A stretch of 64,000 bases of DNA from Escherichia coli. GTDB lineage: Bacteria > Pseudomonadota > Gammaproteobacteria > Enterobacterales > Enterobacteriaceae. Made by a program: the position numbers and the translations under genes. Where the stretch lies: assembly GCF_044647545.1 (NCBI RefSeq), contig NZ_CP172818.1. One strand, written 5' to 3'. Each line of letters begins with the position of its first letter. The stretch's first letter is position 1. Shown in pieces: positions 6,196-57,621 of this stretch. The notes under the pieces are model-generated. The model had not been told where the DNA came from, did not search any database, and saw only the letters and a list, made by a program, of their open reading frames with translations.

Positions 6196-6927
6196 TTATA
6201 TCAGCCAAATGAAACTTGCCATACGACCGGTGGTCTTGTCGCGACGATAAGAGAAGAAAGTCTCATTTTCCGTATATGTACAACGGTCGCCGCCGAAAAT
6301 TTGTTCAACACCAACGCTCGCCAGACGCTGCCGGGCAAGCTGATAAATGTCCGCCAGATACTTATCACCATGCTGAATGAAAGCTGTACTCGCTTCGGCG
6401 TCTACTGCCATAAACGCCTCGCGAACCTCCGCCCCCACTTCAAACGCGCGTGGACCAATTGCCGGCCCTAACCAGGCGAGAATATTTTCTGGATTATCAG
6501 CAAAACAGGAAACTGTCTCTTCCAGCACGCCTGCGCACAGTCCACGCCAGCCAGCATGAGCGGCGGCGACTTCCGTTCCCGCTCGATTGCAAAACAGCAC
6601 AGGGAGGCAGTCGGCAGTCATCACTGCGCAAACCGTGCCGGGCGTATTGCTATAAGAGGCATCTGCTCGTTTTGAGGCATAAGGTTCGCCAGTAAGCTTA
6701 AGCACATCTTTGCCGTGTACCTGCTCAAGCCAGACCGGTTTAGAAGGCAAATTGCCCGCAGCAAAAAGTCGCTTGCGATTCTCCTCAACGTGATCCGGGT
6801 TATCGCCACAATGGGCACCGAGGTTGAGCGAGTCATACGGGGGCAAGCTCACGCCGCCGATACGAGTAGAGCTACAGGCCGCAACACCTTTTGGCAGCGG
6901 CCACTGCGGGACAATCAGCTTACTCAT
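6196..6927 (-). CDS. yfiH: YfiH/PgeF family purine nucleoside phosphorylase / polyphenol oxidase-like protein, 243 aa
   Basis: ORF track; conserved position between clpB and rluD; overlaps rluD stop by 4 nt. Confidence 0.9.
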   Translation of the reverse strand: MSKLIVPQWPLPKGVAACSSTRIGGVSLPPYDSLNLGAHCGDNPDHVEENRKRLFAAGNLPSKPVWLEQVHGKDVLKLTGEPYASKRADASYSNTPGTVCAVMTADCLPVLFCNRAGTEVAAAHAGWRGLCAGVLEETVSCFADNPENILAWLGPAIGPRAFEVGAEVREAFMAVDAEASTAFIQHGDKYLADIYQLARQRLASVGVEQIFGGDRCTYTENETFFSYRRDKTTGRMASFIWLI

Positions 6928-7904
6928 AACCAGTCCACTTCATCTTTATGCTCTTCGAAATCGGCGCGCATCACCTCAATCAGCTCCACCATATCTTGTG
7001 GAATAGGCGCATGCCATTCCATTTCGATACCGGAGATCGGGTGATAAAGACGCAGCATGGTTGCATGAAGCGCCTGGCGGTCAAATTTACGCAGCGTGGA
7101 GATAAACGCTTCCGAAGCACCTTTTGGCGGACGCGGACGGCCACCATAAACCGGATCGCCCACCAGCGGATGAGTGATATGGGCCATATGCACGCGGATC
7201 TGGTGCGTACGTCCAGTTTCCAGACGCAACCGCAGACGCGTGTGCACACGGAAGTGTTCCATGATGCGATAGTGAGTCACCGCTGGTTTGCCCATCGGAT
7301 GCACCGCCATATGGGTACGTTTGGTCGGGTGGCGGCTGATTGGTTCATCTACTGTACCGCCAGCGGTCATATGACCAATTGCCACCGCTTCATACTCACG
7401 AGTCATTTCACGCCTTTGCAAAGATTCGACTAAACGCGTCTGAGCCGGAACGGTTTTTGCCACAACCATCAGGCCAGTGGTGTCTTTATCCAGACGATGG
7501 ACGATGCCTGCACGCGGTACATCGGCAATGGGCGGATAATAATGAAGCAATGCATTCAGTACCGTGCCATCCGGGTTACCCGCGCCAGGATGTACCACCA
7601 GGTCGCGCGGTTTATTAATGACGATGATATCGTCATCTTCATAGACGATATCCAGCGGGATATCCTGCGGTTCAAAACGCGCTTCTTCTTCAATCTCAGC
7701 GTTGATGGCCACCTGCTCGCCACCCAATACTTTTTCTTTCGGCTTATCACAAACTTTGCCGTTAACCAGCACGCGCTGGTCGAGGATCCATTCTTTTATC
7801 CGCGAACGTGAATAATCCGGGAACATTTCGGCCAAAGCCTGATCTAAGCGTTGACCGAGTTGGTTTTCGGACACCGTTGCAGTGAGCTGTACTCGTTGTG
7901 CCAT
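6924..7904 (-). CDS. rluD: 23S rRNA pseudouridine synthase RluD, 326 aa
   Basis: ORF track; translation MAQRVQLTATVSE...; S4 domain plus pseudouridine synthase core (HRLDKDTTGL motif). Confidence 0.95.
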   Translation of the reverse strand: MAQRVQLTATVSENQLGQRLDQALAEMFPDYSRSRIKEWILDQRVLVNGKVCDKPKEKVLGGEQVAINAEIEEEARFEPQDIPLDIVYEDDDIIVINKPRDLVVHPGAGNPDGTVLNALLHYYPPIADVPRAGIVHRLDKDTTGLMVVAKTVPAQTRLVESLQRREMTREYEAVAIGHMTAGGTVDEPISRHPTKRTHMAVHPMGKPAVTHYRIMEHFRVHTRLRLRLETGRTHQIRVHMAHITHPLVGDPVYGGRPRPPKGASEAFISTLRKFDRQALHATMLRLYHPISGIEMEWHAPIPQDMVELIEVMRADFEEHKDEVDWL

Positions 7905-27157: not shown

Positions 27158-27371
27158 ACCTGCACTGCAATTATTGATCCGCTCCTCACCGCGCCTCCCT
27201 CTCCGGCGGCGCGAATGCACATCTTATTGGCTATCACATCCGACCCAAATGTTGCCATCCCATTGCTTAATCGAATAAAAATCAGGCTACATGGGTGCTA
27301 AATCTTTAACGATAACGCCATTGAGGCTGGTCATGGCACTCATGAATCTGGTATACTTACCGTTACACATT

Positions 27372-27734
27372 GGGGCTGATTCTGGATTCGACGGGATTTG
27401 CGAAACCCAAGGTGCATGCCGAGGGGCGGTTGGCCTCGTAAAAAGCCGCAAAAAATAGTCGCAAACGACGAAAACTACGCTTTAGCAGCTTAATAACCTG
27501 CTTAGAGCCCTCTCTCCCTAGCCTCCGCTCTTAGGACGGGGATCAAGAGAGGTCAAACCCAAAAGAGATCGCGTGGAAGCCCTGCCTGGGGTTGAAGCGT
27601 TAAAACTTAATCAGGCTAGTTTGTTAGTGGCGTGTCCGTCCGCAGCTGGCAAGCGAATGTAAAGACTGACTAAGCATGTAGTACCGAGGACGTAGGAATT
27701 TCGGACGCGGGTTCAACTCCCGCCAGCTCCACCA
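27372..27734 (+). ncRNA. ssrA: tmRNA (transfer-messenger RNA)
   Basis: Begins GGGGCTGATTCTGGATTCGACGGG, contains the tag-reading frame GCAAACGACGAAAACTACGCTTTAGCAGCTTAA (ANDENYALAA-stop), ends GGTTCAACTCCCGCCAGCTCCACCA. Confidence 0.97.
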
Positions 27735-27735
27735 A
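27712..27735. repeat. attL: 24-bp direct repeat TTCAACTCCCGCCAGCTCCACCAA (3' end of ssrA)
   Basis: Exact copy found at 49741-49764. Confidence 0.9.
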
Positions 27736-27937: not shown

Positions 27938-29179
27938 ATGGCAAGAAAAACCAAGCCGTTAACTGATACGGAAATCAAAGCCGCCAAACCTAAAGATGCC
28001 GATTACCAGCTTTATGACGGTGACGGGCTTACTCTGTTAATCAAGTCCAGTGGCAGTAAGCTTTGGCAATTCCGTTACTATCGGCCTTTGACCAAGCAGC
28101 GAACCAAACAGAGCTTCGGTGCCTATCCTGCCGTCTCGCTTTCTGATGCACGTAAACTCAGAGCCGAATCTAAAGTTTTATTGGCGAAAGACATTGATCC
28201 TCAGGAACATCAGAAAGAACAGGTGAGGAATTCTCAAGAGGCCAAAACCAATACCTTCTTGTTAGTTGCCGAGCGTTGGTGGAATGTGAAGAAAACCAGC
28301 GTAACAGAGGACTATGCCGACGATATCTGGCGCTCGCTTGAGAGAGATATTTTCCCGGCAATCGGTGATATCAGTATCACTGAGATTAAGGCTCATACTC
28401 TGGTTAAAGCAGTTCAGCCGGTTCAGGCCAGAGGTGCATTAGAGACTGTTCGCCGCCTTTGTCAGCGTATTAACGAAGTCATGATTTATGCGCAGAACAC
28501 AGGCCTGATTGATGCTGTTCCTAGTGTAAATATCGGAAAAGCTTTCGAGAAACCGCAAAAGAAAAACATGCCAAGCATCCGGCCGGATCAACTTCCGCAG
28601 CTAATGCACACCATGCGTACGGCAAGTATCAGCATGTCCACAAGATGCCTGTTCATGTGGCAACTTCTAACCATCACCCGCCCTGCCGAAGCTGCTGAGG
28701 CTCGATGGGATGAGATCGATTTCAATGCTAGCGAATGGAAAATTCCTGCAGCTCGAATGAAGATGAACCGGGACCATACGGTTCCACTATCTGATGGGGC
28801 TCTTGCTATTCTGGAAATGATGAAGCCTCTCAGTGGTGGCCGAGAATTTATCTTTCCTAGCCGTATCAAGCCCAACCAACCAATGAATAGCCAAACAGTG
28901 AATGCAGCACTCAAGCGTGCTGGCTTAGGAGGTGTACTTGTTTCACACGGCTTGCGTTCTATCGCCAGTACGGCACTCAATGAGGAAGGATTTCCACCTG
29001 ATGTCATTGAAGCAGCGCTTGCTCATGTAGACAAAAATGAGGTGCGTCGCGCTTATAACCGCAGTGATTATCTTGAGCAACGTCGTCCGATGATGCAATG
29101 GTGGGCTGATCTCGTAAAAGCAGCAGATAGTGGTAGCATCGTTTTAACTCATTTGAGCAAAATTCGTCTTGTCGGATAA
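27938..29179 (+). CDS. intA: P4-type tyrosine integrase, 413 aa
   Basis: ORF 27902-29179; start taken at MARKTKPLTDTEIKAAKP; C-terminal catalytic region (HGLRSIAST...AHVDKNEVRRAYNRSDYLEQRR). Confidence 0.93.
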   Translation: MARKTKPLTDTEIKAAKPKDADYQLYDGDGLTLLIKSSGSKLWQFRYYRPLTKQRTKQSFGAYPAVSLSDARKLRAESKVLLAKDIDPQEHQKEQVRNSQEAKTNTFLLVAERWWNVKKTSVTEDYADDIWRSLERDIFPAIGDISITEIKAHTLVKAVQPVQARGALETVRRLCQRINEVMIYAQNTGLIDAVPSVNIGKAFEKPQKKNMPSIRPDQLPQLMHTMRTASISMSTRCLFMWQLLTITRPAEAAEARWDEIDFNASEWKIPAARMKMNRDHTVPLSDGALAILEMMKPLSGGREFIFPSRIKPNQPMNSQTVNAALKRAGLGGVLVSHGLRSIASTALNEEGFPPDVIEAALAHVDKNEVRRAYNRSDYLEQRRPMMQWWADLVKAADSGSIVLTHLSKIRLVG

Positions 29180-29422
29180 AATATTTATCAGCCCAGCTCT
29201 CTGGGCTGATATTTCTAAAAGATCGCACTAAATAGCTACGCGGAATAGTGCTCTACTTTCGTTTAGCCCTTTCAGAGGTAAGACATTAGGGCAATTTCAC
29301 TGTATGACTGCGCAGTCATCGAGTCTGTGGGGTGTTGCTCCTTTTGCAACGTATCACTTGTCAATAAATAGAAAGTGTAGATGTATTAGGCGCAGCTATT
29401 TAGTCTATATGGCAAGTAGTAA

Positions 29423-30379
29423 TTATTTACTTCTTTTTTTTCTACGAACAGCGCTATCGAAAGCTTGTTTTACATCTTCATTTTTTAAAGACCATTGATT
29501 TAAAATAGTATCAACCAAAGCATCTTGACTCATTGTTGCTACACGATATTTTTTATTTTGATTATTTATCTCAAACTCTGACATTTGAATAAAATCCCAT
29601 AGCGGTTCGATAAGTTCATTAACTGCTACAACCTTATTTTTCCACCCATCATTCGGAACAGAGTCATTAATTAGCTCAACCAACTTCAGTTGAATGATAT
29701 GGTACACTTCCGCTTTGCTTTTGCCACCCTTCTTTCCTGCACTCCGCCTGACTTCTGATAATTTTTTTTGATTACAAACAGAGATGTTAAACCAAGTCAT
29801 ACCTATGCACTTATCAAATAACTCCGCAGCCCGATGAAATGCTTTAAAGGCAACGTTTTCATTTTCAGACATGATAGATTTTCCCCAGAAAAAAGAGATT
29901 GAGGCGAACATAAGGTGTGCCTTGAAAATGTCATTAATGGAAAATGGCTCGATAACAAGAGGTAAAAACGTTTCCTTGGTAAGGTTTGAACTTAGATTTT
30001 TCCAGCATTCTTGAGCTGGATCATATAATTCAGTGTATTCTTCCTTTATCTCCAGTTGCCCATTCACTGTATGGTGCCTTGTTTCCCATGGTACATCGCA
30101 GGAATATAACCTCACACGAGTACCTATTTTCTCAGAGCTCCAGAATTGCTCTCGCATTCTGCCTAGCTCAATCCGTATTTCCGGATGATCTTCCTCTAGA
30201 ACATCAGTATCCACCGCCCATTCGCATTCGGACATGTGATAGGCGAGATCACGTCGTTTTCTACAAATTTGTTCATAAAAATCATTCAGAGAAATCATAA
30301 AACCACCATAAATCAATGTATTAGAGGTTGTAAAAATTGTATTTTTGGTACATGGGTTTTTTGCCTTAAAGATACCCAT
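29423..30379 (-). CDS. yfjH: Hypothetical protein YfjH, 318 aa, AT-rich, no recognisable motif
   Basis: ORF 29423-30499; start taken at the Met (MGIFKAK...) that avoids overlap with alpA; divergent from alpA. Confidence 0.8.
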   Translation of the reverse strand: MGIFKAKNPCTKNTIFTTSNTLIYGGFMISLNDFYEQICRKRRDLAYHMSECEWAVDTDVLEEDHPEIRIELGRMREQFWSSEKIGTRVRLYSCDVPWETRHHTVNGQLEIKEEYTELYDPAQECWKNLSSNLTKETFLPLVIEPFSINDIFKAHLMFASISFFWGKSIMSENENVAFKAFHRAAELFDKCIGMTWFNISVCNQKKLSEVRRSAGKKGGKSKAEVYHIIQLKLVELINDSVPNDGWKNKVVAVNELIEPLWDFIQMSEFEINNQNKKYRVATMSQDALVDTILNQWSLKNEDVKQAFDSAVRRKKRSK

Positions 30380-30422
30380 TAATCTCTCTGCAACCAAAGT
30401 GAACCAATGAGAGGCAACAAGA

Positions 30423-30635
30423 ATGAACAATCGATCGGCCGTTAGAATACTACGGTTACCAGCGGTTATCCAAAAAACAGGTATGGCACGGGCCACCATC
30501 TATGACTGGTTGAACCCCAAATCACCACGATACGATGCCACCTTTCCCAAAAAGCGAATGCTCGGCGTGAAATCTGTCGGATGGATTGAGGCCGAGATTG
30601 ATGAGTGGTTATCACAACGCTGTAAACTTATTTGA
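30423..30635 (+). CDS. alpA: AlpA-family prophage transcriptional regulator (excisionase-like HTH), 70 aa
   Basis: ORF track; translation MNNRSAVRILRLPAVIQKTGMARATIYDWLN... Confidence 0.92.
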   Translation: MNNRSAVRILRLPAVIQKTGMARATIYDWLNPKSPRYDATFPKKRMLGVKSVGWIEAEIDEWLSQRCKLI

Positions 30636-30763
30636 GGGTGTTACATGAATTCATACTCAATTGCTGTCATCGGAGTGTAAACATCCTGCTATTTCCGCCA
30701 TTAATAGCGGAATAGCCATATTTGCTAAACAATTTCTTAATTTAATTAAATAAGAGGCATTGC

Positions 30764-32173
30764 ATGTTCAATGGTCGTCCTTTCCCTGTAGATGCATTTC
30801 CTAAAATTATCAGGAATGCAATTTATGAAGTGGAACAGCATACGCAGGCCCCTCAAGGTTTGATTGCTGCTTCTGCTCTTGGGGTAATTTCTCTTGCCTG
30901 TCAGAACCGGATTGATGTTTGCCGATTGAATAATCTACGTGGCCCGGTATCACTTTTCTTAATGACTCTGGCTGAATCAGGTGAACGTAAGAGTACGGTT
31001 GATAAACTGCTGATGAAGCCATTATATCAACTGGAAGAGGATTTATTTGAAAAATACACCCACGATCTTACCGCATGGAGAAATGATGAAGCAATTTTTA
31101 ATATTGAAAAAAAAGCACTGATGTCAAAACTTAAATCAGATATTCGACGTAACAAAGATCACTTGGCAACAAATGAAAGACTTAAAGAACTACTTACGAC
31201 AAACCCGAAAGCTCCAGTGAGATTCAAATTTTTATTTAACGATGCCACACCTGCAGCTATTAAAGCTCATCTCTGTGGGCACTGGCGATCAGTCGGCATC
31301 ATGTCTGATGAAGCTGGGATCATTTTTAATGGTTACACACTTAACGAGCTGCCGTTTATCAATAAGATGTGGGATGGTTCAATATTTACGGTGGAAAGGA
31401 AAAACGAGCCCGAGAAATTAATTAGAGATGCAAGAATAACACTGTCGCTGATGGTCCAGCCTAATGTTTTTAAGGGTTATATCGACAGGAAAGGAGATAT
31501 GGCAAAGGGGATTGGATTTTTTGCACGGTGCCTCATGTGCCAGCCTGCTTCAACACAAGGTAACAGAAAAATTTCCAACCCAATTTTTTCAAATGAACAT
31601 TTGCCGGTATTTCACCAACGTCTTATGGAAATTGTTAATGAGAGCATCATTAAAATTAATGAAAATAATCGCATCTGCCTCCGATTCTCTGCAGAAGCAG
31701 AAAGACATTGGATCGAATTCTACAACCAGGTCGAGTCAGAAATGAGAATGATTGGCCTTCTTTATGATTTTAAGGATTATGCTTCTAAAATGGCGGAGAA
31801 CATGGCGAGGCTTGCTGCCTTACTTCATTACTTCAGCGGTGATGGAGGCGATATATCTGTTACCGCAGTAAAAGCAGCAGTGGAGATAGTGGCTTGGTAT
31901 ATTGAAGAATACATCCGCTTGTTCTCTAAAAAAGAAGAGTTTTCTTTAGATGTTTCAGAAGCAGATGAGCTTTATTGTTGGATAAAAGATTACTGCACGC
32001 AAAAATTTTCTTCCTGCATCAAGAAAAATATTATCTTACAATTTGGGCCAAATAAATTTAGAAATCGTGACAAGGCAAATGAATTAATTAGAATCTTAAT
32101 TTCACAAAACAAAATATTTATATCTTCATGGGGTAAAACAAAAATAATAAACATAACTCATTGTGTTTTTTGA
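30764..32173 (+). CDS. yfjI: YfjI, DUF3987-type protein (primase-associated family in integrative elements), 469 aa
   Basis: ORF track; length and order match the K-12 island; family assignment by recollection. Confidence 0.85.
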   Translation: MFNGRPFPVDAFPKIIRNAIYEVEQHTQAPQGLIAASALGVISLACQNRIDVCRLNNLRGPVSLFLMTLAESGERKSTVDKLLMKPLYQLEEDLFEKYTHDLTAWRNDEAIFNIEKKALMSKLKSDIRRNKDHLATNERLKELLTTNPKAPVRFKFLFNDATPAAIKAHLCGHWRSVGIMSDEAGIIFNGYTLNELPFINKMWDGSIFTVERKNEPEKLIRDARITLSLMVQPNVFKGYIDRKGDMAKGIGFFARCLMCQPASTQGNRKISNPIFSNEHLPVFHQRLMEIVNESIIKINENNRICLRFSAEAERHWIEFYNQVESEMRMIGLLYDFKDYASKMAENMARLAALLHYFSGDGGDISVTAVKAAVEIVAWYIEEYIRLFSKKEEFSLDVSEADELYCWIKDYCTQKFSSCIKKNIILQFGPNKFRNRDKANELIRILISQNKIFISSWGKTKIINITHCVF

Positions 32174-32325
32174 TTTTAATGACAATCTAAAAGGACTTAA
32201 TTTAAGAGTAAAAACAAACTCTAAACCCAGTTCGGATAAAAGCTTGTCATCTTGATAGGTAATATATAGGTACATAGACACATCAGAACGATCACTTACT
32301 CCAATATCATTGGCCAGGATACTAT

Positions 32326-32952
32326 ATGACATACGATAGTGAATTCGGATCACATGTATCCCTATATCGGGATAGAATCAAACAGGTTATTGATGACTCC
32401 CTAAACGAACATCTTAACTCAATGATTCTACGTGTTGATCTGCATGACCCAATTGATACAGAAAATATGGATAACCCATTCTTTCAACCCAGGGTTGACT
32501 CTGGTGCTATATCTCGCTTTACCAGTGCGTTAAAAGCAAAGCTTAAACATGATAAGCATATTAAAACTCAACGGAAAGACTGGCCTGATAGTCGACATTC
32601 CACTTTACGTTACGCATGGGTCAGAGAATATACCAAAAATAGAAAGCGGCATTACCATTTGATACTGTGTTTCAATCAGGATGCTTATTATCATTTAGGT
32701 GATTACGACTTAAACCGTAACACGTTACGTACAATGATAACGACAGCTTGGTACAGTGCACTTGGCATCCCTATAGATAGCTCGGGGAAGTTAGTTAATT
32801 ACCCGCCAAATGGCAAATACCTTCTCAATCGTAAAAGGGACAACTTTGAGCAGACTTATAGCGATTTGATGAATAGGGTGGATTACATGACCAAAGTAAG
32901 GACTAAAATAGTCGGTGACGGAGACCGTAATTTCGGCTGCAGTCGCGGGTAA
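32326..32952 (+). CDS. yfjJ: YfjJ, YagK/YfjJ family (inovirus Gp2-like replication-initiator family), 208 aa
   Basis: ORF track; family assignment by recollection. Confidence 0.8.
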   Translation: MTYDSEFGSHVSLYRDRIKQVIDDSLNEHLNSMILRVDLHDPIDTENMDNPFFQPRVDSGAISRFTSALKAKLKHDKHIKTQRKDWPDSRHSTLRYAWVREYTKNRKRHYHLILCFNQDAYYHLGDYDLNRNTLRTMITTAWYSALGIPIDSSGKLVNYPPNGKYLLNRKRDNFEQTYSDLMNRVDYMTKVRTKIVGDGDRNFGCSRG

Positions 32953-33129
32953 TTTATTTTTTACAACAATGGCCTTTCTTATGGCTGGAAAGGCCTGATT
33001 TGTTTGTATTAAGATATCGGTAATCTTTTGATGGTTGGAAGCCCGTCCTGGTAGACGACCTAGCCTACCGAAGATGTGAGTTATTCAAAAATGTCGCTTT
33101 CCCGCGTTCCGTAGACAAACGTACCTAAA

Positions 33130-35319
33130 TCAATGTCGTCTAATACCGAGCGCGCGCCTGATAAACATCTGATCAACGTACCCAATCGATCTACTCCAAA
33201 TGTCCTGAGTATCCCGAAGATACTGGCTCAACTCATCCACATCAGCCTCGTCGGAAAATTCCAGCAAGTCTACCAGTCGGTGTAACGTCTGAATGGGAAT
33301 GCCAATCTCTTCTAAGGCATTGACACCTGGTGGTAGATGGAAACTTTCGAACGCCAATTTGACATGTGTGTAATCGACTTTGCTGCGTATACCACGCTTT
33401 ACAGCGTGGTGTTTAACTACATCCTCCATCAAGCTGAGCACCTTAGGTAGGGTATAGCCGAAGGTATTGGTTATGAGCTTCAAATCATTGTTGAGGGCAA
33501 TGGAAAGAGTACGTTTCTCCCCTTCAGAAATCCACTGTCGTGCATAATCGATCTGATTTTTCAGATATTCCGAATAACTTTCAGCACTTAAATAGCCGGC
33601 AAGTTTTGCGATCATGACATCCGTAGGCTTAACAGGGACCCCATTGCGACTGAACGTATGGGGAACCAGTCTGGCAATGATCTTTGCAAAGGTCTTGAGG
33701 AAGTTTGTCGCGGGAGTCCAGTGAAACACTAACGAGGAAAATTCGTTATCGTCCATCATCTCGAACATGCTTTGCAGCATTTCGAACTGCTCGACACGGA
33801 AGTACGAATGCTTCTTCACAAGGTCGATGGAAACACGGTCGTTTATGAAAACCTCATCAAAGCGATCCTGTGAAAACTCGGACAAGTGGTCTGGTTGAAC
33901 GCTGGCTAACAGGTTGATTGGGGTATCAATGCCCTGAATACCGAGCGGAATATCCACCTCTTGATTGAGATTGTCTTCCGGGATTTCCTCCAGGCAAAAG
34001 ATTTTGCCGACGAAGTGAACGCCCATGCGCCCGGCGCGACCTTTGATGTTCCCATGGGTGAATTTGTCAATGCTGCGAGTTCCATCGCGGTTGTCGTAGA
34101 TCACAACGTTCTTAGCGATAGTGTTGACTCCTTCAATGATCGTGGAGGTGCAGAGCAAAAAGCGCAGTTTTCCAGCATTGAATTGGTCGGCAGTGTATTG
34201 CTGCAGTGCCCTCGGTAGCGCGCCAAAATGCAAGCCAATACCGTTTCTAAGGGCGACTGTGTAATCCCAGTCGGCATCGAACTCTTCGCTGACCCAGTCG
34301 ACATGGGGATTCTCAGTCGGAGTGCCATGCCCAAGCCTGATCAGCTCGCGCGCCACCAGGCCCGCAACAGTTGGTGACTTGCAATAAATGATCGTTGCGT
34401 CGACACATGCGTGCGCGATTTCCCCCAGCGCTTTGAGCTTGGCTTTGTCGTCATTCGCTTTGATGCCGAACGTCTTAACATCTAGCGCGACTGTATTGAA
34501 GTCGGTAGAAACGAAAGTATGCGGATATCCAAGTTTTTCGAGACCGCGAATGCTGTTAACGAACGGTCCCGTCAGGTAAAACTGCCTGGAGACCTTAAGC
34601 AGTTTGCTTAACGCAATGTTGAGCTCGATGACTCGTTCGTCTTGATGATCAATGTCCCCGCTTTTCAGTTGTCGGAACGCCAACTTGTAAAACTCGTCAA
34701 TGACGAAGAGGTCAATGTCGACGATGTCGTCACGCTCGTTCACTCGCTCCTGAGTTAACACATAAACAGCCTGATCGGAATGGCACACTTGGGAACTGTG
34801 GTGGATGATCTGATATCGGTCACCGAATCGCTCTTGCAGTCGGCGACGGGTTTCGTCGGCAAGAGCCACGGTTGGAACAACCAGAACAAGCCGTTTCAAA
34901 GTTCCCATGCCGAGCAATGAATCGACGATTGCACTTTTGCCCATGCTTGTAGGTGCACTCAGCACCACGTTTTGACCAGACTTGAGCAGATCGAATATGT
35001 GGAACTGCATTGAGTGGAAAACATAACCATCCGAGAATGGCGTCCGGTATAGCTCAAGCACCCTCAGGTCATCCGGTGTCAGGCTGGTGAACTCCTTTTT
35101 GAGATACGGGAACAAACCTGATTTTCTCACCATATTTTTCAAAATTGTGGTGTGCTCGGAAAACCGCTCGCGCGAATCGAGAGCTCGCACGATCAAGTCC
35201 CGTCCCAAGTCATACGAAACAGGGTTAGACAACAGCTTGTTAACCGCAAACAGATAATTGAACGATGAGAAGTCCTCACCCTGCAGGCTATGTTTCGCCT
35301 GTTCATAGATCTCTGTCAT
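33130..35319 (-). CDS. yfjK: SF2 DEAD/DEAH-box helicase YfjK, 729 aa
   Basis: ORF track; Walker A APTSMGKS, motif II VIDEFY, motif VI GRAGRMG visible in the translation; start overlaps yfjL stop (ATGA). Confidence 0.92.
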   Translation of the reverse strand: MTEIYEQAKHSLQGEDFSSFNYLFAVNKLLSNPVSYDLGRDLIVRALDSRERFSEHTTILKNMVRKSGLFPYLKKEFTSLTPDDLRVLELYRTPFSDGYVFHSMQFHIFDLLKSGQNVVLSAPTSMGKSAIVDSLLGMGTLKRLVLVVPTVALADETRRRLQERFGDRYQIIHHSSQVCHSDQAVYVLTQERVNERDDIVDIDLFVIDEFYKLAFRQLKSGDIDHQDERVIELNIALSKLLKVSRQFYLTGPFVNSIRGLEKLGYPHTFVSTDFNTVALDVKTFGIKANDDKAKLKALGEIAHACVDATIIYCKSPTVAGLVARELIRLGHGTPTENPHVDWVSEEFDADWDYTVALRNGIGLHFGALPRALQQYTADQFNAGKLRFLLCTSTIIEGVNTIAKNVVIYDNRDGTRSIDKFTHGNIKGRAGRMGVHFVGKIFCLEEIPEDNLNQEVDIPLGIQGIDTPINLLASVQPDHLSEFSQDRFDEVFINDRVSIDLVKKHSYFRVEQFEMLQSMFEMMDDNEFSSLVFHWTPATNFLKTFAKIIARLVPHTFSRNGVPVKPTDVMIAKLAGYLSAESYSEYLKNQIDYARQWISEGEKRTLSIALNNDLKLITNTFGYTLPKVLSLMEDVVKHHAVKRGIRSKVDYTHVKLAFESFHLPPGVNALEEIGIPIQTLHRLVDLLEFSDEADVDELSQYLRDTQDIWSRSIGYVDQMFIRRALGIRRH

Positions 35320-36932
35320 ACGACCTCTCTCACCTTCTCATCAACTAATTGGGTTAACCGCTCAAGACTCGGGGCTGGATAAATGAATACGTGGATGCAA
35401 AGATTCGCAAACGGCGAATCCTCGATGAGGTCAGCCGCGAATTTTTCGAACAGCACCGCTGTTTCTTTCTCCAGGTCATCCTCGAACCCCGGCGTTTCAG
35501 GCTCGGTTAGTAGATTAGAGTCGTAGCCCACGAACAGAACAAACGTGAAACGATCGAGGTGAGCATCGAAAGGTTGGCTGCCATCAAGAATTTCGTCAAT
35601 GTCGTGGCGAAGCAGGTAGTTATCGTCTTTAATGTCGAGGATTTTTTTGCGCGCGGTATCGATGCAATCCGAAATGTCCTCGTACAACTGATCCCGTATC
35701 TCCGGCAATCTGACGGCAATGTTAATATCAGTCACCAACTCGCTGAAGCCAATCCAAAGCTGATCACCTTCTGGATCGCGGCGAACGATATGCACGTTTT
35801 CAAGAATTTTTTCGGCCCCTGCTTTTTCCACGTATAGCATGCAAGGAATAGGCTGGCTTTCGTGGTGCTGCCGGATCGTTGCGTGCAACAGCACTCGACC
35901 CAAAAATTCGCTGACGTCATGGAGCGATTTGAAGACGGAATTCTTTAGTCGTTCTCGCTTTTCAATGAATGTCAGTTTATGAATATCAGACATTTCTTTT
36001 GGTCGGAGAAAAACCTCATCCAACCATTGACAGACGTTATCCGCGATGTGCTTGTAGCGGTATTTCTTAAGTGAGTACTGCTGATGTAGAACCTGGCCTT
36101 TACGCTTAGCGCAGACCGAAGCCATAGGCGCTCTAAATGGCGTAAGGATGTGGGGTAAGTCCCGTTTGACGTAGATTTTGCGGCCTGACCGAGATTGGTC
36201 ATCTTCGACACGCTGCTTGAACCACTCAAGTAGGTCTGGTCGTAAGTAGGACTTGTCATCAGCACTGTGAATGCGTCGAGAATGCTCGCCCTTGCGCGTC
36301 ACAGTATCAAGGATGCGGCACCAAATGTCTTCGGCGACGGTTTCGGAACTGAGAATGACCCCATGTAGATCTTGGGAGGCCAGCCGTATGTTCTTGATCC
36401 CTAGAAGTTCCAGTTCGCGCAGGGATGAAAACACTTCCCATGTAGCCGCATCGATCCAATCTGAAACGCTTATACCTGAGTCTGTTAAAAAATTGTCTGT
36501 GCGTTTGTTGAGGTCATCGATGAGTTCCTGTCGACCTGGCTTATCTAGTCGGGCGTTTGGGCTGATCGTCAAGTACTCAAGGGTTTTGTTGACCTTTTCC
36601 TCTGTGACGATGGAGTACCTACGTCCAAGGGACAGGTCAGACTCACACTGCATTGATTTGTGCAAAATTGAACTGCAGGGGATCGTCTTTTTATCAGCAC
36701 CTTTTGAATTCTGAACGATGTCCGAAATGTTCCAACGTGTTTTGCCGGTGCTTTTTACCTGAACGAAGTCGATGTATCCATCAGATACAATGTCGATATC
36801 GTCTGTGACCTCGCAGCGCACACTGCGGATAGTCTTGTCACGAAGCATTCGGGTGACATGGTAAGCGGCTACGCAGTCCTGAAATAAGAAACCGTGCTTG
36901 GCGGCTACTCCGCCTGAATCGTTCGACTCCAT
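35316..36932 (-). CDS. yfjL: YfjL, 538 aa, putative nuclease-like N-terminal domain plus large C-terminal domain of unknown function
   Basis: ORF track; N-terminal GFLFQD...EVTDDIDIV...DFVQVKS resembles a PD-(D/E)xK/QxK core; translationally coupled to yfjK. Confidence 0.88.
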   Translation of the reverse strand: MESNDSGGVAAKHGFLFQDCVAAYHVTRMLRDKTIRSVRCEVTDDIDIVSDGYIDFVQVKSTGKTRWNISDIVQNSKGADKKTIPCSSILHKSMQCESDLSLGRRYSIVTEEKVNKTLEYLTISPNARLDKPGRQELIDDLNKRTDNFLTDSGISVSDWIDAATWEVFSSLRELELLGIKNIRLASQDLHGVILSSETVAEDIWCRILDTVTRKGEHSRRIHSADDKSYLRPDLLEWFKQRVEDDQSRSGRKIYVKRDLPHILTPFRAPMASVCAKRKGQVLHQQYSLKKYRYKHIADNVCQWLDEVFLRPKEMSDIHKLTFIEKRERLKNSVFKSLHDVSEFLGRVLLHATIRQHHESQPIPCMLYVEKAGAEKILENVHIVRRDPEGDQLWIGFSELVTDINIAVRLPEIRDQLYEDISDCIDTARKKILDIKDDNYLLRHDIDEILDGSQPFDAHLDRFTFVLFVGYDSNLLTEPETPGFEDDLEKETAVLFEKFAADLIEDSPFANLCIHVFIYPAPSLERLTQLVDEKVREVV

Positions 36933-37190
36933 TTAGACATCCGTGACAATTTTGCGAAAATTAAGGAGATGTTATGACACAGTCCAATCGGATCACTGCA
37001 TCATCACCAGTGATCTAAATACTTCACAGCCATTCTCGGTCGCAGGTATCAAGCTTTTCAGGATTCCACAAATATTGTAACCCTGACGTCTAATTTGGTT
37101 ATATAACATACTGCCCCAACTAACGTAAGGTAGGCACAGCCTTAATCAAGGTTTTGGTTTTCAAATAGTTCAGAGCTGAGACCGCCAACC

Positions 37191-37242
37191 GCACTATGGC
37201 ACTATGGCACTATGGCACTATGGCACTATGGCACTATGGCAC
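37191..37242. repeat. Octanucleotide tandem repeat (GCACTATG) x6.5 flanked by ACCGCCA
   Basis: Read directly: gcactatg repeated six times plus gcac; 7-bp ACCGCCA on both sides; lies between yfjM stop and yfjL start. Confidence 0.95.
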
Positions 37243-37291
37243 CGCCAGCGATTGTAATCACACTTGATATTATAAAACACAGTTGCACGCA

Positions 37292-44935: not shown

Positions 44936-45094
44936 GACTTTCCAGGTGAACAGCGCTCTAGGTAGGAACTTTGTCGTTGATAGAGTCTTCAGCCATCAAC
45001 ACTGTATCGAGTAATGAAATTGGTTGCTAGAAAGTCGATGATTTGTTGCGTATGATTAAAAATCAACCTTAAAGGCTTTATACATGGATTTGCT

Positions 45095-46798
45095 ATGGCT
45101 TTTGTATCAGAAAGAGAAATTGTAAGAAAGATATTTAGCAAAAAAATTGACTTTACGATCTTGGCATTTTTCTATATTTCCTCTATTTTTTTTCTTCTTT
45201 GTAGTGGCGTTCTCTTTCAATATTTTACCGCTGCCTTCACAAAAGGTAATTGTTATGAATGCTCAATGAAACTTGATTACATAAAACAATTTTATTTTTC
45301 ACTGGAAACCGCATGGTACCTCATATCTGCTGTTGCAGTATTTATTGCATCTGTTTTTATACAGCATAGAATTAAAGCTTATTTAACATTATTAGCTATT
45401 ACATGGATTGTACTAACAATAACAGATGTGGCGTTAATACACGCCTTAGACAATATAGCCATGAATAATATTTTGTTAAATATACTATATAATCTTTTTG
45501 GGGCGATTTTATTGTCACTGTTTATGTGTTTATCAAATTCCCTCCTTTTCCACCTTAATAAGATAAAACATATTCCAATGATTTTATCGGCAATGATTCC
45601 ATTAGTTTCCGCAATAATAATAGCCATACTCATAACCGCTGTTATATATTTATTGTTTGCCCGGCAGGCGGTAGAGATTGAGATGGATATATCTGAAGGT
45701 TCAGACATCGCATATGTAGGTGTAAAAGATAATGAGGAATCATTTGGGTTTTTAAATGATAAAAAAACAGACACACCAACGTATCTGGATGTAATCAAAA
45801 ATGGTAGTTTGATATATAATGATACACAGGGTTTAAGTGGTGCTGATATTTATATTGTCTCCGGTTGTTATGCCCTTCCAGATTTACTTCGCAATGTACC
45901 GCTTGATGCTAAAAAATCTTTTCTGAATGTAAAAAAGCTAGAAATCACACAGAAACTTCCAATGATGGGGTTCATACAAGGTGAATCCGCTGATGTGATG
46001 CCTAAAGCAGCATCCAGGTTAAGTTTGAGCAAGCAAGATGATAAATTTATGCTAGCCTCAAGTGTTACTGACTCTCAAATAAAATTTAAATCAAACAATG
46101 CACAATTGATGGTTGCTTTCGCATTTATGCCAATAACAACGAATGGTATTTTACATGATTATACATACGATATAATAATAAATGATAAAAAATATAAAAT
46201 TGAAAATCATGTTGCACCTCTATCTAGGCTTGATAAAAATAAGAAGATGAAGTGTGAATACCAGCAAATATCGGATTTAACAAATACGTATAACATTAAT
46301 GCAAATTACTTAACGGGTTTTTTACTTGTCCTAAAACCAGATGATATTATTAATTACAACAATAGCCCTTCCGTACTACTCAAGACTGATTTTGCGTTCT
46401 ATAAAAAAACATACCAGAAGCTTGATAAAATATATGATGACATAAGCAATGGAAAATTATCTTCACTGAGAGCAACAGGTATCTCCCAGTTTAGTATCAA
46501 CGGGAAACATTTGTCGTTAAGGCCAGAATCGGAGATTATTATTTCTGAAGGGAGTTTGTATGGACTAGTTAATAAAAGCAAAAAAATCAAAATATATGGC
46601 ACAGCAGATCTTGTTTTTGTTGATAACAAGATAATGAACCTTCGTAAAATAACTTATTTGCAATCTAAGCTAGAAATTTTTGGTTCTTCTATTATGGATA
46701 TATTAAAGTATATATTTGGTTTAGGTCTGCTAGCAATTTCTATAAAATTCATTCATTCTTACTTTAAGAATGATGTGAATGAAAATTTATTCTTGTAA
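45095..46798 (+). CDS. yfjW: YfjW, 567 aa, N-terminal polytopic membrane domain plus large C-terminal domain of unknown function; strongly AT-rich
   Basis: ORF track; about five hydrophobic helices in the first ~190 residues; A/T-rich codon usage unlike the core genome. Confidence 0.85.
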   Translation: MAFVSEREIVRKIFSKKIDFTILAFFYISSIFFLLCSGVLFQYFTAAFTKGNCYECSMKLDYIKQFYFSLETAWYLISAVAVFIASVFIQHRIKAYLTLLAITWIVLTITDVALIHALDNIAMNNILLNILYNLFGAILLSLFMCLSNSLLFHLNKIKHIPMILSAMIPLVSAIIIAILITAVIYLLFARQAVEIEMDISEGSDIAYVGVKDNEESFGFLNDKKTDTPTYLDVIKNGSLIYNDTQGLSGADIYIVSGCYALPDLLRNVPLDAKKSFLNVKKLEITQKLPMMGFIQGESADVMPKAASRLSLSKQDDKFMLASSVTDSQIKFKSNNAQLMVAFAFMPITTNGILHDYTYDIIINDKKYKIENHVAPLSRLDKNKKMKCEYQQISDLTNTYNINANYLTGFLLVLKPDDIINYNNSPSVLLKTDFAFYKKTYQKLDKIYDDISNGKLSSLRATGISQFSINGKHLSLRPESEIIISEGSLYGLVNKSKKIKIYGTADLVFVDNKIMNLRKITYLQSKLEIFGSSIMDILKYIFGLGLLAISIKFIHSYFKNDVNENLFL

Positions 46799-46805
46799 CG
46801 CATTT

Positions 46806-46826
46806 GGCTCCAATTGGAGCCTTTTT
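46806..46826 (+). terminator. Rho-independent terminator after yfjW
   Basis: GGCTCCAATTGGAGCC hairpin followed by TTTTT. Confidence 0.8.
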
Positions 46827-47227
46827 ATGACTATTTATTAAAATATCCTAAGTTAAGCCTGTTTTTAAAGCAGGCTTGAGCGTGAAGCGGACACTCATAC
46901 CTGCTTTAAAGTGGCGTTTTTGTCGTTACCCATACCTATATTTTCTGTTGTTTAACTGCCAGAACTGAGCGGTTGAAAAGCCAGAAATATGCCGAGCCAG
47001 CGGCATGGAAGCGCCAGCAGCTGTTGAATGGAGTACTGTAGGCAAATGGTGCCGTAACCGGCTTTCGTACTGAAAGGTTCTGTCTATCCCATCCCTTCTC
47101 TTGTATCTAACATTTAGTTGTGAATAGCTACTGTAAATGCCCCTACAAAATGAACCATTATTTTTAGAGGGCGTCTGGCACTCCAACTTCCGCTTTTGGC
47201 ACAGAACGGCCTATCAGCAATATAAAA

Positions 47228-49740: not shown

Positions 49741-49764
49741 TTCAACTCCCGCCAGCTCCACCAA
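49741..49764. repeat. attR: 24-bp direct repeat identical to the ssrA 3' end
   Basis: TTCAACTCCCGCCAGCTCCACCAA, exact match to 27712-27735. Confidence 0.9.
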
Positions 49765-54830: not shown

Positions 54831-55097
54831 TCACACAATAACTCTGAGATCGCAGATTGTTTTACTTTTACAGCTTCCGTCCCCCCATTGTTGGGCAAAT
54901 ATAGATTGGGCCAGAGCACGAAAGTTAATACCACGTTTGCACAGCTCCTCCAACAGCACGACAAGATGCCACATACTGCGCCCCAGTCGGTTCAGTTTAC
55001 AGACTAGCAGTGCGTCCCCTACCGATAATGTCCTGAGCCGTTTGTTCTGTCCGGGCCTGCTGCCACGGTTATGCGCTGCAGTGGTAACTCTAAGCAC
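54831..55097 (-). pseudogene. pinH: Serine invertase (Pin/Hin family) fragment
   Basis: 88-aa ORF with ...GDALLVCKLNRLGRSMWHLVVLLEELCKRGINFRAL..., resembling the middle of Pin-type recombinases; lacks the N-terminal catalytic Ser region and the C-terminal HTH. Confidence 0.7.
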
Positions 55098-55426
55098 GCA
55101 GTTATTCAGTCAGGCGTGGTGCACCGTAACGCTGGTATTGCTGGGTAAGATCAAAAAACTTTCAAGCAGCTAAGGAAAGTTGAACCAGACATTAGATGAA
55201 ATATTTCAACCAATTACAGCACCAGTTCAGACACCGCCAACTCATCAAATAAATCAAGGGGTTACGTGAAAGCGCAGCCCCTTTTACTTTGGTAGTGGCA
55301 GCAAAAGGGTTGTAGTGTAAAGGATAATTCCGTTTAATCAGCCAACAATATATATTATTTCAATCTACGTTATTATCTCTTTTAAAAATAGCCATTTATT
55401 TATCATTGAAAACTGCTTTTAGAACT

Positions 55427-56865
55427 TTATACAAGGGGACTATTCTCCACGGGATCATCCTTAGTGGAAGGATCATCAAAGTCATCATCCATAAATAAAA
55501 TATCATCGAATGGTGCCACGCCCGTGATGAGTTTTATTTTTTTATTACGATCAGACAAGACTCCACTTAAACCGTTTTCGCTGACGCGTTCTAATGATTT
55601 TTCATAACTCTCATTGTTAGCAGGCGTATTAAAAATACACGGAGTATCAACATCAAACAATGACGTCCCCCAGTTCACATATTTAATATCATAGTTACTG
55701 AAGTTCTGTCCAGAAAAGAAGCACCCCTTAAAGTCCAATCCACCTAAATTGTATAAACAACCCTCTTCTTTTGGGAGAGTAATTTTAATTCTGGCTATCT
55801 CCCAGACAAAATTGCCATTTTTGTATTTGAATACCGTTTCAAGATCTCCTCCAGACAGCTTGACTTCTGGAAATAATTTGAAATTAAACCCTACATTATT
55901 ATGTGTCAACGTAGATGAACAAAAGATGGAAAAAGCTTGCAGTGCTGAATTATAGCTATCGATTTTATCTTGAGGCTGCGCTCTTGGTAAAAACTTATAG
56001 CAACACTCATAAAAATTAAGTAGAAACTCTGATGACCTTCCATTTTTATCAAATAATACCCGCTGAAAATGCTGCACAAACTTATTCGTTTTTTCTTGAA
56101 TATCTACGGTGTGTTCCTTTGACTCTGACAAAGATGGAGCCTGTTGAAGTGCATTGCTCATCTGGTTAATGAACATGTGCATTTCTTTAAATTTATCTCC
56201 ATAGTGACCTTTAACTTGCTGCGAGTTTTTAGCTACAGGTGAAATCTTATCTATTTGGTTGTCATATAAATTATGTGATTCCATACAGTCATTTGGCGGC
56301 GTTTCTGAAATAACACTACGTGTTCTACCTGGCTGAAGTGAAGCAACATGAAAATCACTTTTTATTATATTATCGAAAAGGGCCTGTTCATTTTTTTAGC
56401 GGATTGAACATACTGATCAATATTATTTTCTCTCGATAATTTGTTATTTTCAGAAAACACATTTTCTTTAATCTCCGGTTTTAATTTAATGAGAAGATTT
56501 TCCCACTCCTGCTTGCTTAAACATACTACGTCAGGCTCACCATCAGTAACTAACTCTTCATTATTATCAAAGTGTACGTTGAATACTTTTAAGTTATTTT
56601 CATCAACATCATATTTAATACGTTTTAATTGTTCTCCAGCTCCCATAATGACAAAGGCGTTGCCTTCTTGATATATACATTCAGACATTATTTTTTGTAA
56701 AGTTTCAAGAGCACCGCGATACATCCCTGAGGCAGCTTCCTTACAAATTAAATTTATAATACTATAAGCTAGTAGCTCCATGGGGTTGGAAGAATTGTTT
56801 TCATTACAACTTCCACTACCCAAAACTGTATTAACGTTATGACCATTACTTTTACTAACTAACAT
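55427..56865 (-). pseudogene. ypjC: AT-rich hypothetical gene split by a frameshift into 166-aa and 285-aa ORFs (ypjC-like; symbol uncertain)
   Basis: ORFs 56365-56865 and 55427-56284 are collinear on the minus strand in different frames, separated by about 80 nt containing a T7 homopolymer (56391-56397). Confidence 0.65.
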
Positions 56866-57621
56866 TGTCTATTCCTCAGTTAATGTCTACATGGCTATGT
56901 TTAACGTTATTACTGTTTGTCATTATAAAAAACCGCTCATTTGAGACAATTGCTGACATTAACTGTTTCACTTGCTACGCATGGACTTTTTAATTAAATT
57001 AGCACAAGAATGTTAAATTTAATAAACAAAAAGTTATTTCGCTGTATGATAAAAACCAACCGTTATGATTTATTAGTGGAATTCGTTTTTCGAGTGTTAG
57101 AAATTTATATCTAAATAGCGTTAATTAATGAGCAAAGCCAGACTCCTGTAACGCTCATAAGACTCATCTGCCTGCGACGGGTGGTCTGGTCAGTAGTAGA
57201 TGTTTAAGGCGTGGCAGAGACATTTCATCCTTACTCTACGGCATTGGTCCACATACAAATCGTGGTTGTGACACTTCACTTATCATCAGTGAGCGAACAG
57301 AGAATAGTTCAGTGATTTGAGTAATTAACCTGATTAAATGAAAAGGCATGATAAATGATAATACTCTGGCTTTATCGTTAATTACTTAATTCCACATGTA
57401 AGCAATTTGCCCGCTTGGCATAGCGGGCATTTTTTCCAGGTACTTTTGAATGAGTACTGATGGATAAATACATTGCAGTGGCGTGCCACGTACCAAAACA
57501 CCAGCCCTCATTCGAAACCACCTACCGCACTGCTTCTTTAAAATGGCGTTAGTCGTGAAATATTGACCGCCATCGAGTCCCCCTTGTAACCTTAACTCTT
57601 CCTGATACATGAATGATGATT

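Follow-up and report, generated by a model that had tools for sequence, protein, structure and literature searches.

Can the CP4-57 island of Escherichia coli K-12 still copy itself once it has left the chromosome? The question is raised by three genes, alpA, yfjI and yfjJ, which span positions 30423-32952 at the left end of CP4-57 in the 64,000-nucleotide stretch of E. coli DNA that we analysed (contig NZ_CP172818.1; hereafter the window), all on the + strand and all intact. A preliminary description of this locus had read the three genes as a satellite-type regulation and replication module rather than as cargo. We confirm the observation and consider its interpretation reasonable and partly supported: CP4-57 is plausibly still able to copy itself after excision. 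Family names for two of the products were already present in the annotation provided by PGAP ("YfjI family protein" for YfjI and "inovirus Gp2 family protein" for YfjJ), and what is new here is a conserved 29-bp element located 5' of yfjI. The features that carry the argument are the following.

30423-30635, + strand: alpA, small helix-turn-helix (HTH) regulator and excision factor (PF05930, E 7e-24; PHROG "excisionase and transcriptional regulator")
30688-30716, + strand: 29-bp near-palindrome GCTATTTCCGC-CATTAATA-GCGGAATAGC in the alpA-yfjI spacer, 47 nt before the yfjI start
30764-32173, + strand: yfjI, predicted DUF3987 MCM-like AAA+ helicase (PF13148)
32326-32952, + strand: yfjJ, YagK/YfjJ-family HUH endonuclease and putative nicking initiator (PF11726, PF23343)

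Two replication-type proteins in a conserved backbone

The open reading frames (ORFs) of alpA, yfjI and yfjJ were found at exactly the positions and on the strand given in the preliminary description, and its family assignments agree with the Pfam matches PF05930, PF13148 and PF11726. Between positions 27300 and 33200 the window matches E. coli K-12 MG1655 and its derivatives at 99.9% identity. To place the three genes in a wider context, we compared them with related islands in which YfjJ is 41% (L006-L009) or 55% (L010-L013) identical to the K-12 protein. These islands keep the order integrase, variable genes, alpA, DUF3987 gene and YfjJ gene, and this set is followed by opposite-strand defence cargo that differs between islands (type I restriction-modification [RM], PDDEXK and other genes) and then by a YfjP-like GTPase gene. 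As the gene order is stable while the adjoining defence cargo changes, alpA, yfjI and yfjJ belong to the backbone and not to the cargo, as had been proposed. From this comparison, the trio appears to form a conserved core that serves the life cycle of a family of islands bearing an integrase. The earlier statement that no structural genes remain also holds, in that the RefSeq record annotates no capsid, tail or packaging gene across the 22-kb element.

YfjI matches the DUF3987 profile PF13148 with an E-value of 1e-107 and covers 363 of its 364 positions. Its structural model has an MCM-like AAA+ fold (residues ~28-388) followed by a C-terminal winged helix (residues ~399-464), which is the architecture of self-loading helicases. 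The P-loop, AESGERKS, is not a canonical GK[ST] motif but has an arginine in place of the usual glycine before the lysine. We considered this arginine as a sign of decay and rejected the idea, since the SGERK[ST] form is the family norm, with arginine at this place in 142 of 149 sequences. Across 61 sequences that reach down to 30% identity, residues K76 (Walker A), E183 (Walker B), R255, R268 and R349 do not vary. One DUF3987 protein, AgaPH, is a proven 5'-3' helicase that needs both of its Walker motifs (A and B) and partners a Prim-Pol, and it is the only member of the family for which ATP-dependent unwinding has been shown (PMC11724360). We infer that K-12 YfjI is likewise a helicase.

YfjI had also been described as primase-associated, and this is true of its family. 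We found 11,435 relatives among 1.84 billion cluster representatives; many of those at 33-36% identity reach lengths of 650-1,070 aa, several of them with an N-terminal Toprim or Prim-Pol domain, from which we conclude that the term holds for DUF3987 proteins as a group. It does not extend to YfjI itself, whose Pfam match is to DUF3987 alone, with no primase catalytic domain. The weak PHROG "primase" matches of YfjI fall on its helicase portion, and the primase domains are confined to the longer homologues. YfjI is, by its domain content, the stand-alone helicase part of a primase-associated family.

YfjJ matches PF11726 (YagK_YfjJ_C) with an E-value of 1e-63 and 214.7 bits (cut-off 25.8). It also matches PF23343 (REP_ORF2-G2P), marginally and over residues 75-123 only, at 29.9 bits (cut-off 27.8). 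In an alignment of 45 homologues at 40-92% identity, the invariant residues include R36, D38 and H40 (RVDLH), W98 and E101, H109-x-H111 (HYHLIL), and Y187-x-x-K190 (DYMTK), which by their sequence correspond to the three motifs of HUH rolling-circle initiators. The motif Y187-M-T-K190 lies in a predicted helix (residues 174-188). The fold appears Rep-like, and its structural neighbours are Rep/NS1-type initiators and not MOB relaxases. A site-specific nicking and joining activity of K-12 YfjJ on single-stranded DNA is putative. Searches of the PDB by sequence with YfjI or YfjJ returned nothing significant, and a search of NCBIfam gave no matches.

The preliminary description had called YfjJ an inovirus Gp2-like initiator. 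The initiator part of this claim is supported by the HUH motifs and the apparently Rep-like fold. Direct comparison with M13 gpII, the classical gene II protein of Ff phages, detected no similarity (hhalign probability of 0.14%; in hmmsearch a negative score and E 0.11), so the "inovirus Gp2" label derives solely from the marginal PF23343 match. A search of a phage collection yielded only an unverified, low-coverage 4.5-kb contig.

Better evidence on the role of this family comes from pA41H1, a circular Psychrobacter plasmid of 2,626 bp with a single ORF of at least 65 aa. The 227-aa product matches PF11726 (3e-14) and PF23343 (5e-8), and it aligns with the YfjJ profile at an hhalign probability of 96% (E 1.6e-9) with its motifs FRFDIR, HYHLVL and SYLAK in register. 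ColE1 RNAI was not found on pA41H1. This plasmid suggests that the YagK/YfjJ family contains real plasmid initiators. Small Klebsiella plasmids (5.5-5.9 kb) with a gene of Gp2 type were considered as proof of a Rep role and were rejected as uninformative, because they contain ColE1 RNAI (Rfam 64.5 bits). On these ColE1-type plasmids (for example L017 = NZ_CP056377.1, with RNAI present) the Gp2-type HUH gene adjoins a serine recombinase gene, and a pairing of HUH and resolvase genes recurs in islands of the UCP007319 type and in a 3.7-kb E. coli plasmid (L022).

The palindrome upstream of yfjI

The 17-mer ATTAATAGCGGAATAGC within the 29-bp element is present without a mismatch in every DUF3987-type island that we fetched. 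A scan of one genome per species from 100,044 species, in which ~35 matches are expected by chance, recovered 50 matches. Twelve of these adjoin the genes under study, in 11 Enterobacterales records and in one contig labelled as a Flavobacterium metagenome-assembled genome. Eleven of the twelve precede a YfjI homologue by ~35-55 nt and share its orientation; the remaining locus (L055) stops before the position of yfjI and has alpA alone upstream. The other 38 matches, one of them in an Enterobacterales genome, have none of these genes nearby and fit the chance level. This conservation persists despite saturation of synonymous sites between the islands (pS 0.65-0.85).

The outer arms of the element are invariant, and changes in the inner stem are uncompensated, which points to recognition of duplex DNA by a protein and not to an RNA structure. 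On the same ground, and because there is no T-tract, we rejected the idea that the alpA-yfjI spacer holds an RNA terminator or attenuator. As single-stranded DNA, the K-12 element is predicted to form a hairpin of -7.9 kcal/mol (z -4.2). An AlpA operator is also unlikely, in that the palindrome occurs with two types of AlpA that are only 23-35% identical and is absent with K-12-like AlpA proteins that are 58-67% identical. The element holds TTAATAGCGGA in its hairpin loop and 3' arm, which equals the core of the unique M13 nick site, TTAATAGTGGA, the shared motif being TTAATAGYGGA. We rejected an Ff-like nick site and judge this match a coincidence, because YfjJ is unlike gpII and the element tracks yfjI and not yfjJ.

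The element may be an activator-dependent promoter element of yfjI (its centre would lie near -41 of a plausible start), an autoregulatory operator bound by YfjI, or a loading site or origin for YfjI; we regard it as a candidate for each of these roles. In L074, the spacer between alpA and a DUF3987 gene with a product 42% identical to that of yfjI contains an inverted repeat of 16 bp without mismatches, GCAGTAGCGAACTGAC caac GTCAGTTCGCTACTGC (942-977; -20.9 kcal/mol, z -8.8). This repeat lies where the K-12 element does but differs from it in sequence, as would suit a site co-evolving with the helicase. No conserved hairpin in common with K-12 was seen in the UCP007319-type sister islands.

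Elsewhere in the island, the space where intA and yfjH converge contains an imperfect 34-nt inverted repeat (29227-29260 and 29371-29404; 76% complementary, arms 110 nt apart), and its left arm holds GCGGAATAG, a 9-mer of the right arm of the element upstream of yfjI.

Proposed amplification of the excised circle and its alternatives

From these data we propose, as a tentative reading to which we give somewhat less than an even chance, that the excised circle undergoes transient, nick-primed amplification by YfjJ, YfjI and host polymerase. The first step, in which AlpA triggers IntA-dependent excision, has been shown in the literature, and AlpA overexpression is used to cure CP4-57 through excision (PMC10107115, PMC3105296). 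On the excised 22-kb circle, YfjI would then be the unwinding motor, with its C-terminal winged helix probably recognising the 29-bp palindrome before its own gene. YfjJ would nick the circle at a specific site and the resulting 3'-OH would prime the host DNA polymerase, which would explain why a primase is dispensable. The outcome would be transient rolling-circle-like amplification and not plasmid-like maintenance, as would fit a satellite-type element awaiting a helper. The analysis shows what the genes are, their motifs, apparent folds and synteny, and that the palindrome is conserved; from these we infer the helicase and nickase activities in K-12, the assignment of the palindrome and the replication of CP4-57.

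A bolder form of this proposal is that CP4-57 and its many Enterobacterales relatives may make up a class of their own, of defence islands that still function and that replicate with the aid of a helper. Such islands would use a "split Rep": the MCM-like helicase YfjI, which has no primase, would be loaded at the 29-bp palindrome, and a separate HUH nickase, YfjJ, would give the primer end. We consider this generalisation rather unlikely. If it were true, the excised circle would be amplified in ordinary K-12 when alpA is induced or when some helper phage infects the cell.

Several results weigh against amplification by YfjI and YfjJ acting together. The curing of CP4-57 by AlpA indicates that its circle is not stably maintained, and the literature that we covered, in which Wang et al. 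2009 (ISME J) was not included, contained no report of an increase in CP4-57 copy number. No primase is annotated anywhere in CP4-57. The only candidate for an origin at the locus is the single conserved palindrome at 30688-30716; no nick site was identified there, positions 29150-33200 contain no direct-repeat (iteron) arrays, and no repeated half-sites were found. The palindrome does not follow YfjJ clades and co-segregates with yfjI only, and it thus gives no evidence for a YfjJ origin. Finally, as set out below, helicase and nickase genes are separable. What remains of the earlier claim of a satellite-type replication module is a set of replication-type proteins with a precedent in the PICMI core (PMC10803314). 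The curing itself is not decisive against transient replication, as AlpA overexpression also cures a PICMI that does replicate (PMC10803314).

The separability of the two genes is seen in a sister island at ssrA (L002), whose integrase and AlpA are 93% and 67% identical to those of K-12. This island has kept alpA and a YfjJ homologue, and yfjI is replaced in its slot (6216-7728) by genes for a PF27701/UCP007319 protein of 252 aa and for an HTH protein of 193 aa that resembles resolvases/invertases. An island from Aeromonadaceae has a similar layout with UCP007319 filling the yfjI slot. A UCP007319 gene was also called in L014, and an alternative cassette in the yfjI slot was observed in L014 and L019. 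Conversely, L074 and L075 have distant DUF3987 genes after alpA and no YfjJ. As yfjI is replaceable and DUF3987 genes occur without yfjJ, we conclude that helicase and nickase are frequent neighbours and not an obligate pair.

This result bears on the alternative that YfjI alone is the initiator-helicase, in the manner of SaPI Rep, SCCmec Cch or PICMI Prim, that the palindrome is its origin or operator, and that YfjJ is an independent adjacent module with another DNA-processing role. This alternative draws on the co-segregation of the palindrome with yfjI only, on DUF3987 genes that follow alpA without YfjJ both in L074 and L075 and in PICMIs (PMC10803314), on the occurrence of YfjJ without DUF3987 in other islands, on an MCM-like and winged-helix architecture like that of self-loading helicases, and on the different palindrome found at the same place in L074. 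However, a helicase needs a primase or a nick for synthesis to start, and YfjJ is the sole such candidate present. Furthermore, adjacency of DUF3987 and YfjJ genes recurs even at 35% YfjI identity despite an altered orientation, as in L076, where the DUF3987 gene adjoins a divergently oriented YfjJ homologue. We regard an initiator role for YfjI alone as unlikely, though it is among the main rivals of nick-primed amplification by both proteins.

Another alternative, which we also hold to be improbable, is that the module is a decayed relic in K-12, with intact proteins and with replication lost because a helper, an origin or a primase is missing. The genes would then persist through hitch-hiking with the island or through another role, such as one in regulation or defence. 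The loss of CP4-57 after AlpA-driven excision (PMC10107115, PMC3105296), its very low frequency of spontaneous excision (PMC3105296), the lack of annotated structural and packaging genes and the lack of origin repeats in the region searched are all consistent with a relic. No helper phage for CP4-57 is reported in the literature covered. Decay is countered by the state of the genes themselves: yfjI and yfjJ are full length in comparison with their homologues, every residue invariant in their families (including the catalytic residues) is kept, and pN is well below pS, indicating that both are under purifying selection. The exact conservation of the upstream palindrome across genera also argues against a relic.

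HUH proteins act as relaxases as well as Reps. That YfjJ is a Rep-like relaxase that would nick an oriT, so that a co-resident conjugative element would mobilise the excised island as single-stranded DNA with YfjI as an accessory helicase, is nevertheless very unlikely: homologues of YfjJ are found on many large conjugative plasmids and the distal part of CP4-57 has genes of the type found in conjugative leading regions (DUF932 yfjQ, antirestriction yfjX/lfgA and RadC-like yfjY/lfgB), but a coupling protein and other mobilisation genes are absent from the CP4-57 annotation, the structural neighbours of YfjJ are not MOB relaxases, and related Pseudomonas islands at the tmRNA gene move through transduction by phages and not through contact between cells (PMC12595487).

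Island context and comparison with known systems

CP4-57 is integrated at ssrA, and the spacing of its two 24-bp att repeats gives a length of 22,029 bp. The remaining features of the element that bear on its layout are listed below.

27372-27734: ssrA, the tmRNA gene (from ARAGORN)
27712-27735, + strand: attL core, the 3' end of ssrA and a perfect 24-bp direct repeat with 49741-49764
27938-29179, + strand: intA, P4-type tyrosine integrase (Pfam Arm-DNA-bind_3, Phage_int_M and Phage_integrase; PGAP coordinates)
29423-30379, - strand: yfjH, gene of the variable slot between int and alpA (matches phrog_19089, function unknown)
32254-32270, + strand: AT-rich block GATAGGTAATATATAGG, conserved 5' of yfjJ
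32971-33005, + strand: terminator-like hairpin (32971-32995) with a T-rich tail, from a consensus scan and partly conserved in L006
49741-49764, + strand: attR core, a perfect 24-bp direct repeat of 27712-27735

A Pfam scan of YfjH gave no match, and the content of the int-alpA interval that it occupies varies among related islands. Blocks related to the AT-rich one precede yfjJ homologues in both types of island, and the K-12 block is probably the -10 region of a yfjJ promoter. The hairpin at 32971 appears to close the alpA-yfjI-yfjJ transcription unit. Beyond yfjJ, abpB and abpA lie on the opposite strand, followed by rnlAB and the remainder of CP4-57. The cargo beside yfjJ (33130-36932) is the AbpAB defence pair, in which AbpA has Cap4-nuclease and HamA domains and AbpB has DEAD and Helicase_C domains, a Hachiman-like architecture. 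In related islands the same slot holds type I RM, PDDEXK, NERD-STAND or ScaI RM genes, and this variation marks it as a defence-gene hotspot. The spacer of abpA (yfjL) and yfjM contains the octamer GCACTATG in ~6-7 tandem copies (37183-37246). The G+C content is markedly low (0.32-0.39) at 45000-47000, within CP4-57 near its right end, and at 55000-60000, past attR.

If the module works, the best-studied laboratory bacterium bears an unrecognised replicative, satellite-like element. Excision phenotypes ascribed to a "cryptic prophage" in studies of biofilm, ribosome rescue and defence-gene dosage would then have to be re-read, and two y-genes and the large YagK/YfjJ family would be assigned a function. 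CP4-57 would also be a tractable system for a widespread island backbone (integrase, AlpA, DUF3987 helicase and HUH protein) that flanks hotspots of anti-phage cargo. Should the module prove inactive, what is left is the correct domain annotation of a decayed element.

Among known elements, the closest precedent is provided by the PICMI satellites of Vibrionaceae, in which alpA is both necessary and sufficient for activation, and rolling-circle-like amplification of circles and concatemers depends on the DUF3987 gene "prim" (PMC10803314). In PICMIs, the pairing of alpA with a DUF3987 gene is thus an experimentally validated excision and replication core, to which CP4-57 may be likened by analogy. 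Both have the order int, small variable gene, alpA and DUF3987 gene (the marker that defines PICMI "prim"), and both lack capsid genes and carry defence-gene cargo. They differ in size (~6 kb for PICMIs and 22 kb for CP4-57) and in site (beside fis and at ssrA, respectively), and CP4-57 has the additional HUH gene yfjJ. Any replication or packaging of CP4-57 is hypothetical.

The satellite marker block, an integrase, AlpA and a DUF3987-type gene close together, is present in CP4-57. E. coli elements of PICI-like type that have only integrase, AlpA and primase/helicase genes and no packaging genes are common (PMC11773190). Gram-negative PICIs, including the "Type C" element EcCIMP1, share this core with CP4-57, and EcCIMP1 likewise has no recognisable capsid-morphogenesis or terminase genes (PMC11773190). 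In contrast to PICIs, the helicase of CP4-57 has no primase domain, its annotation has no packaging module or capsid-redirection genes, and its HUH protein lies outside the PICI definition. Islands at the 3' end of the Pseudomonas tmRNA gene recurrently encode a tyrosine integrase (IntY), AlpA, a protein like inovirus Gp2, and RadC, with defence systems as their cargo, and a jumbo phage transduces at least one of these islands (PMC12595487). CP4-57 has the same integration site and the same set of genes; the Pseudomonas islands differ in genus, in gene order (alpA and the Gp2-like gene are at the far end) and in the presence of YqaJ, and a DUF3987 helicase is not reported as part of their core.

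At the level of the proteins, YfjI invites comparison with staphylococcal initiators and YfjJ with a wide range of Reps. SCCmec Cch and SaPI Rep are reportedly MCM-like self-loading helicases (said to have been described by Mir-Sanchis et al. in 2016; PDB 5dgk). YfjI belongs to a different sequence family, DUF3987, with its SGERK[ST] P-loop, and where the SaPI origin consists of iteron arrays downstream of rep, CP4-57 has a single palindrome upstream of yfjI. YfjJ shares the three Rep motifs, and apparently the fold, of HUH initiators such as RepB of pMV158, microvirus gpA/VP4, AAV Rep and SIRV1 ORF119. In the Reps of CRESS viruses and parvoviruses an HUH nuclease is combined with a helicase, whereas CP4-57 has nuclease and helicase as separate and separable genes, with a helicase that is MCM-like and not of superfamily 3 (SF3).

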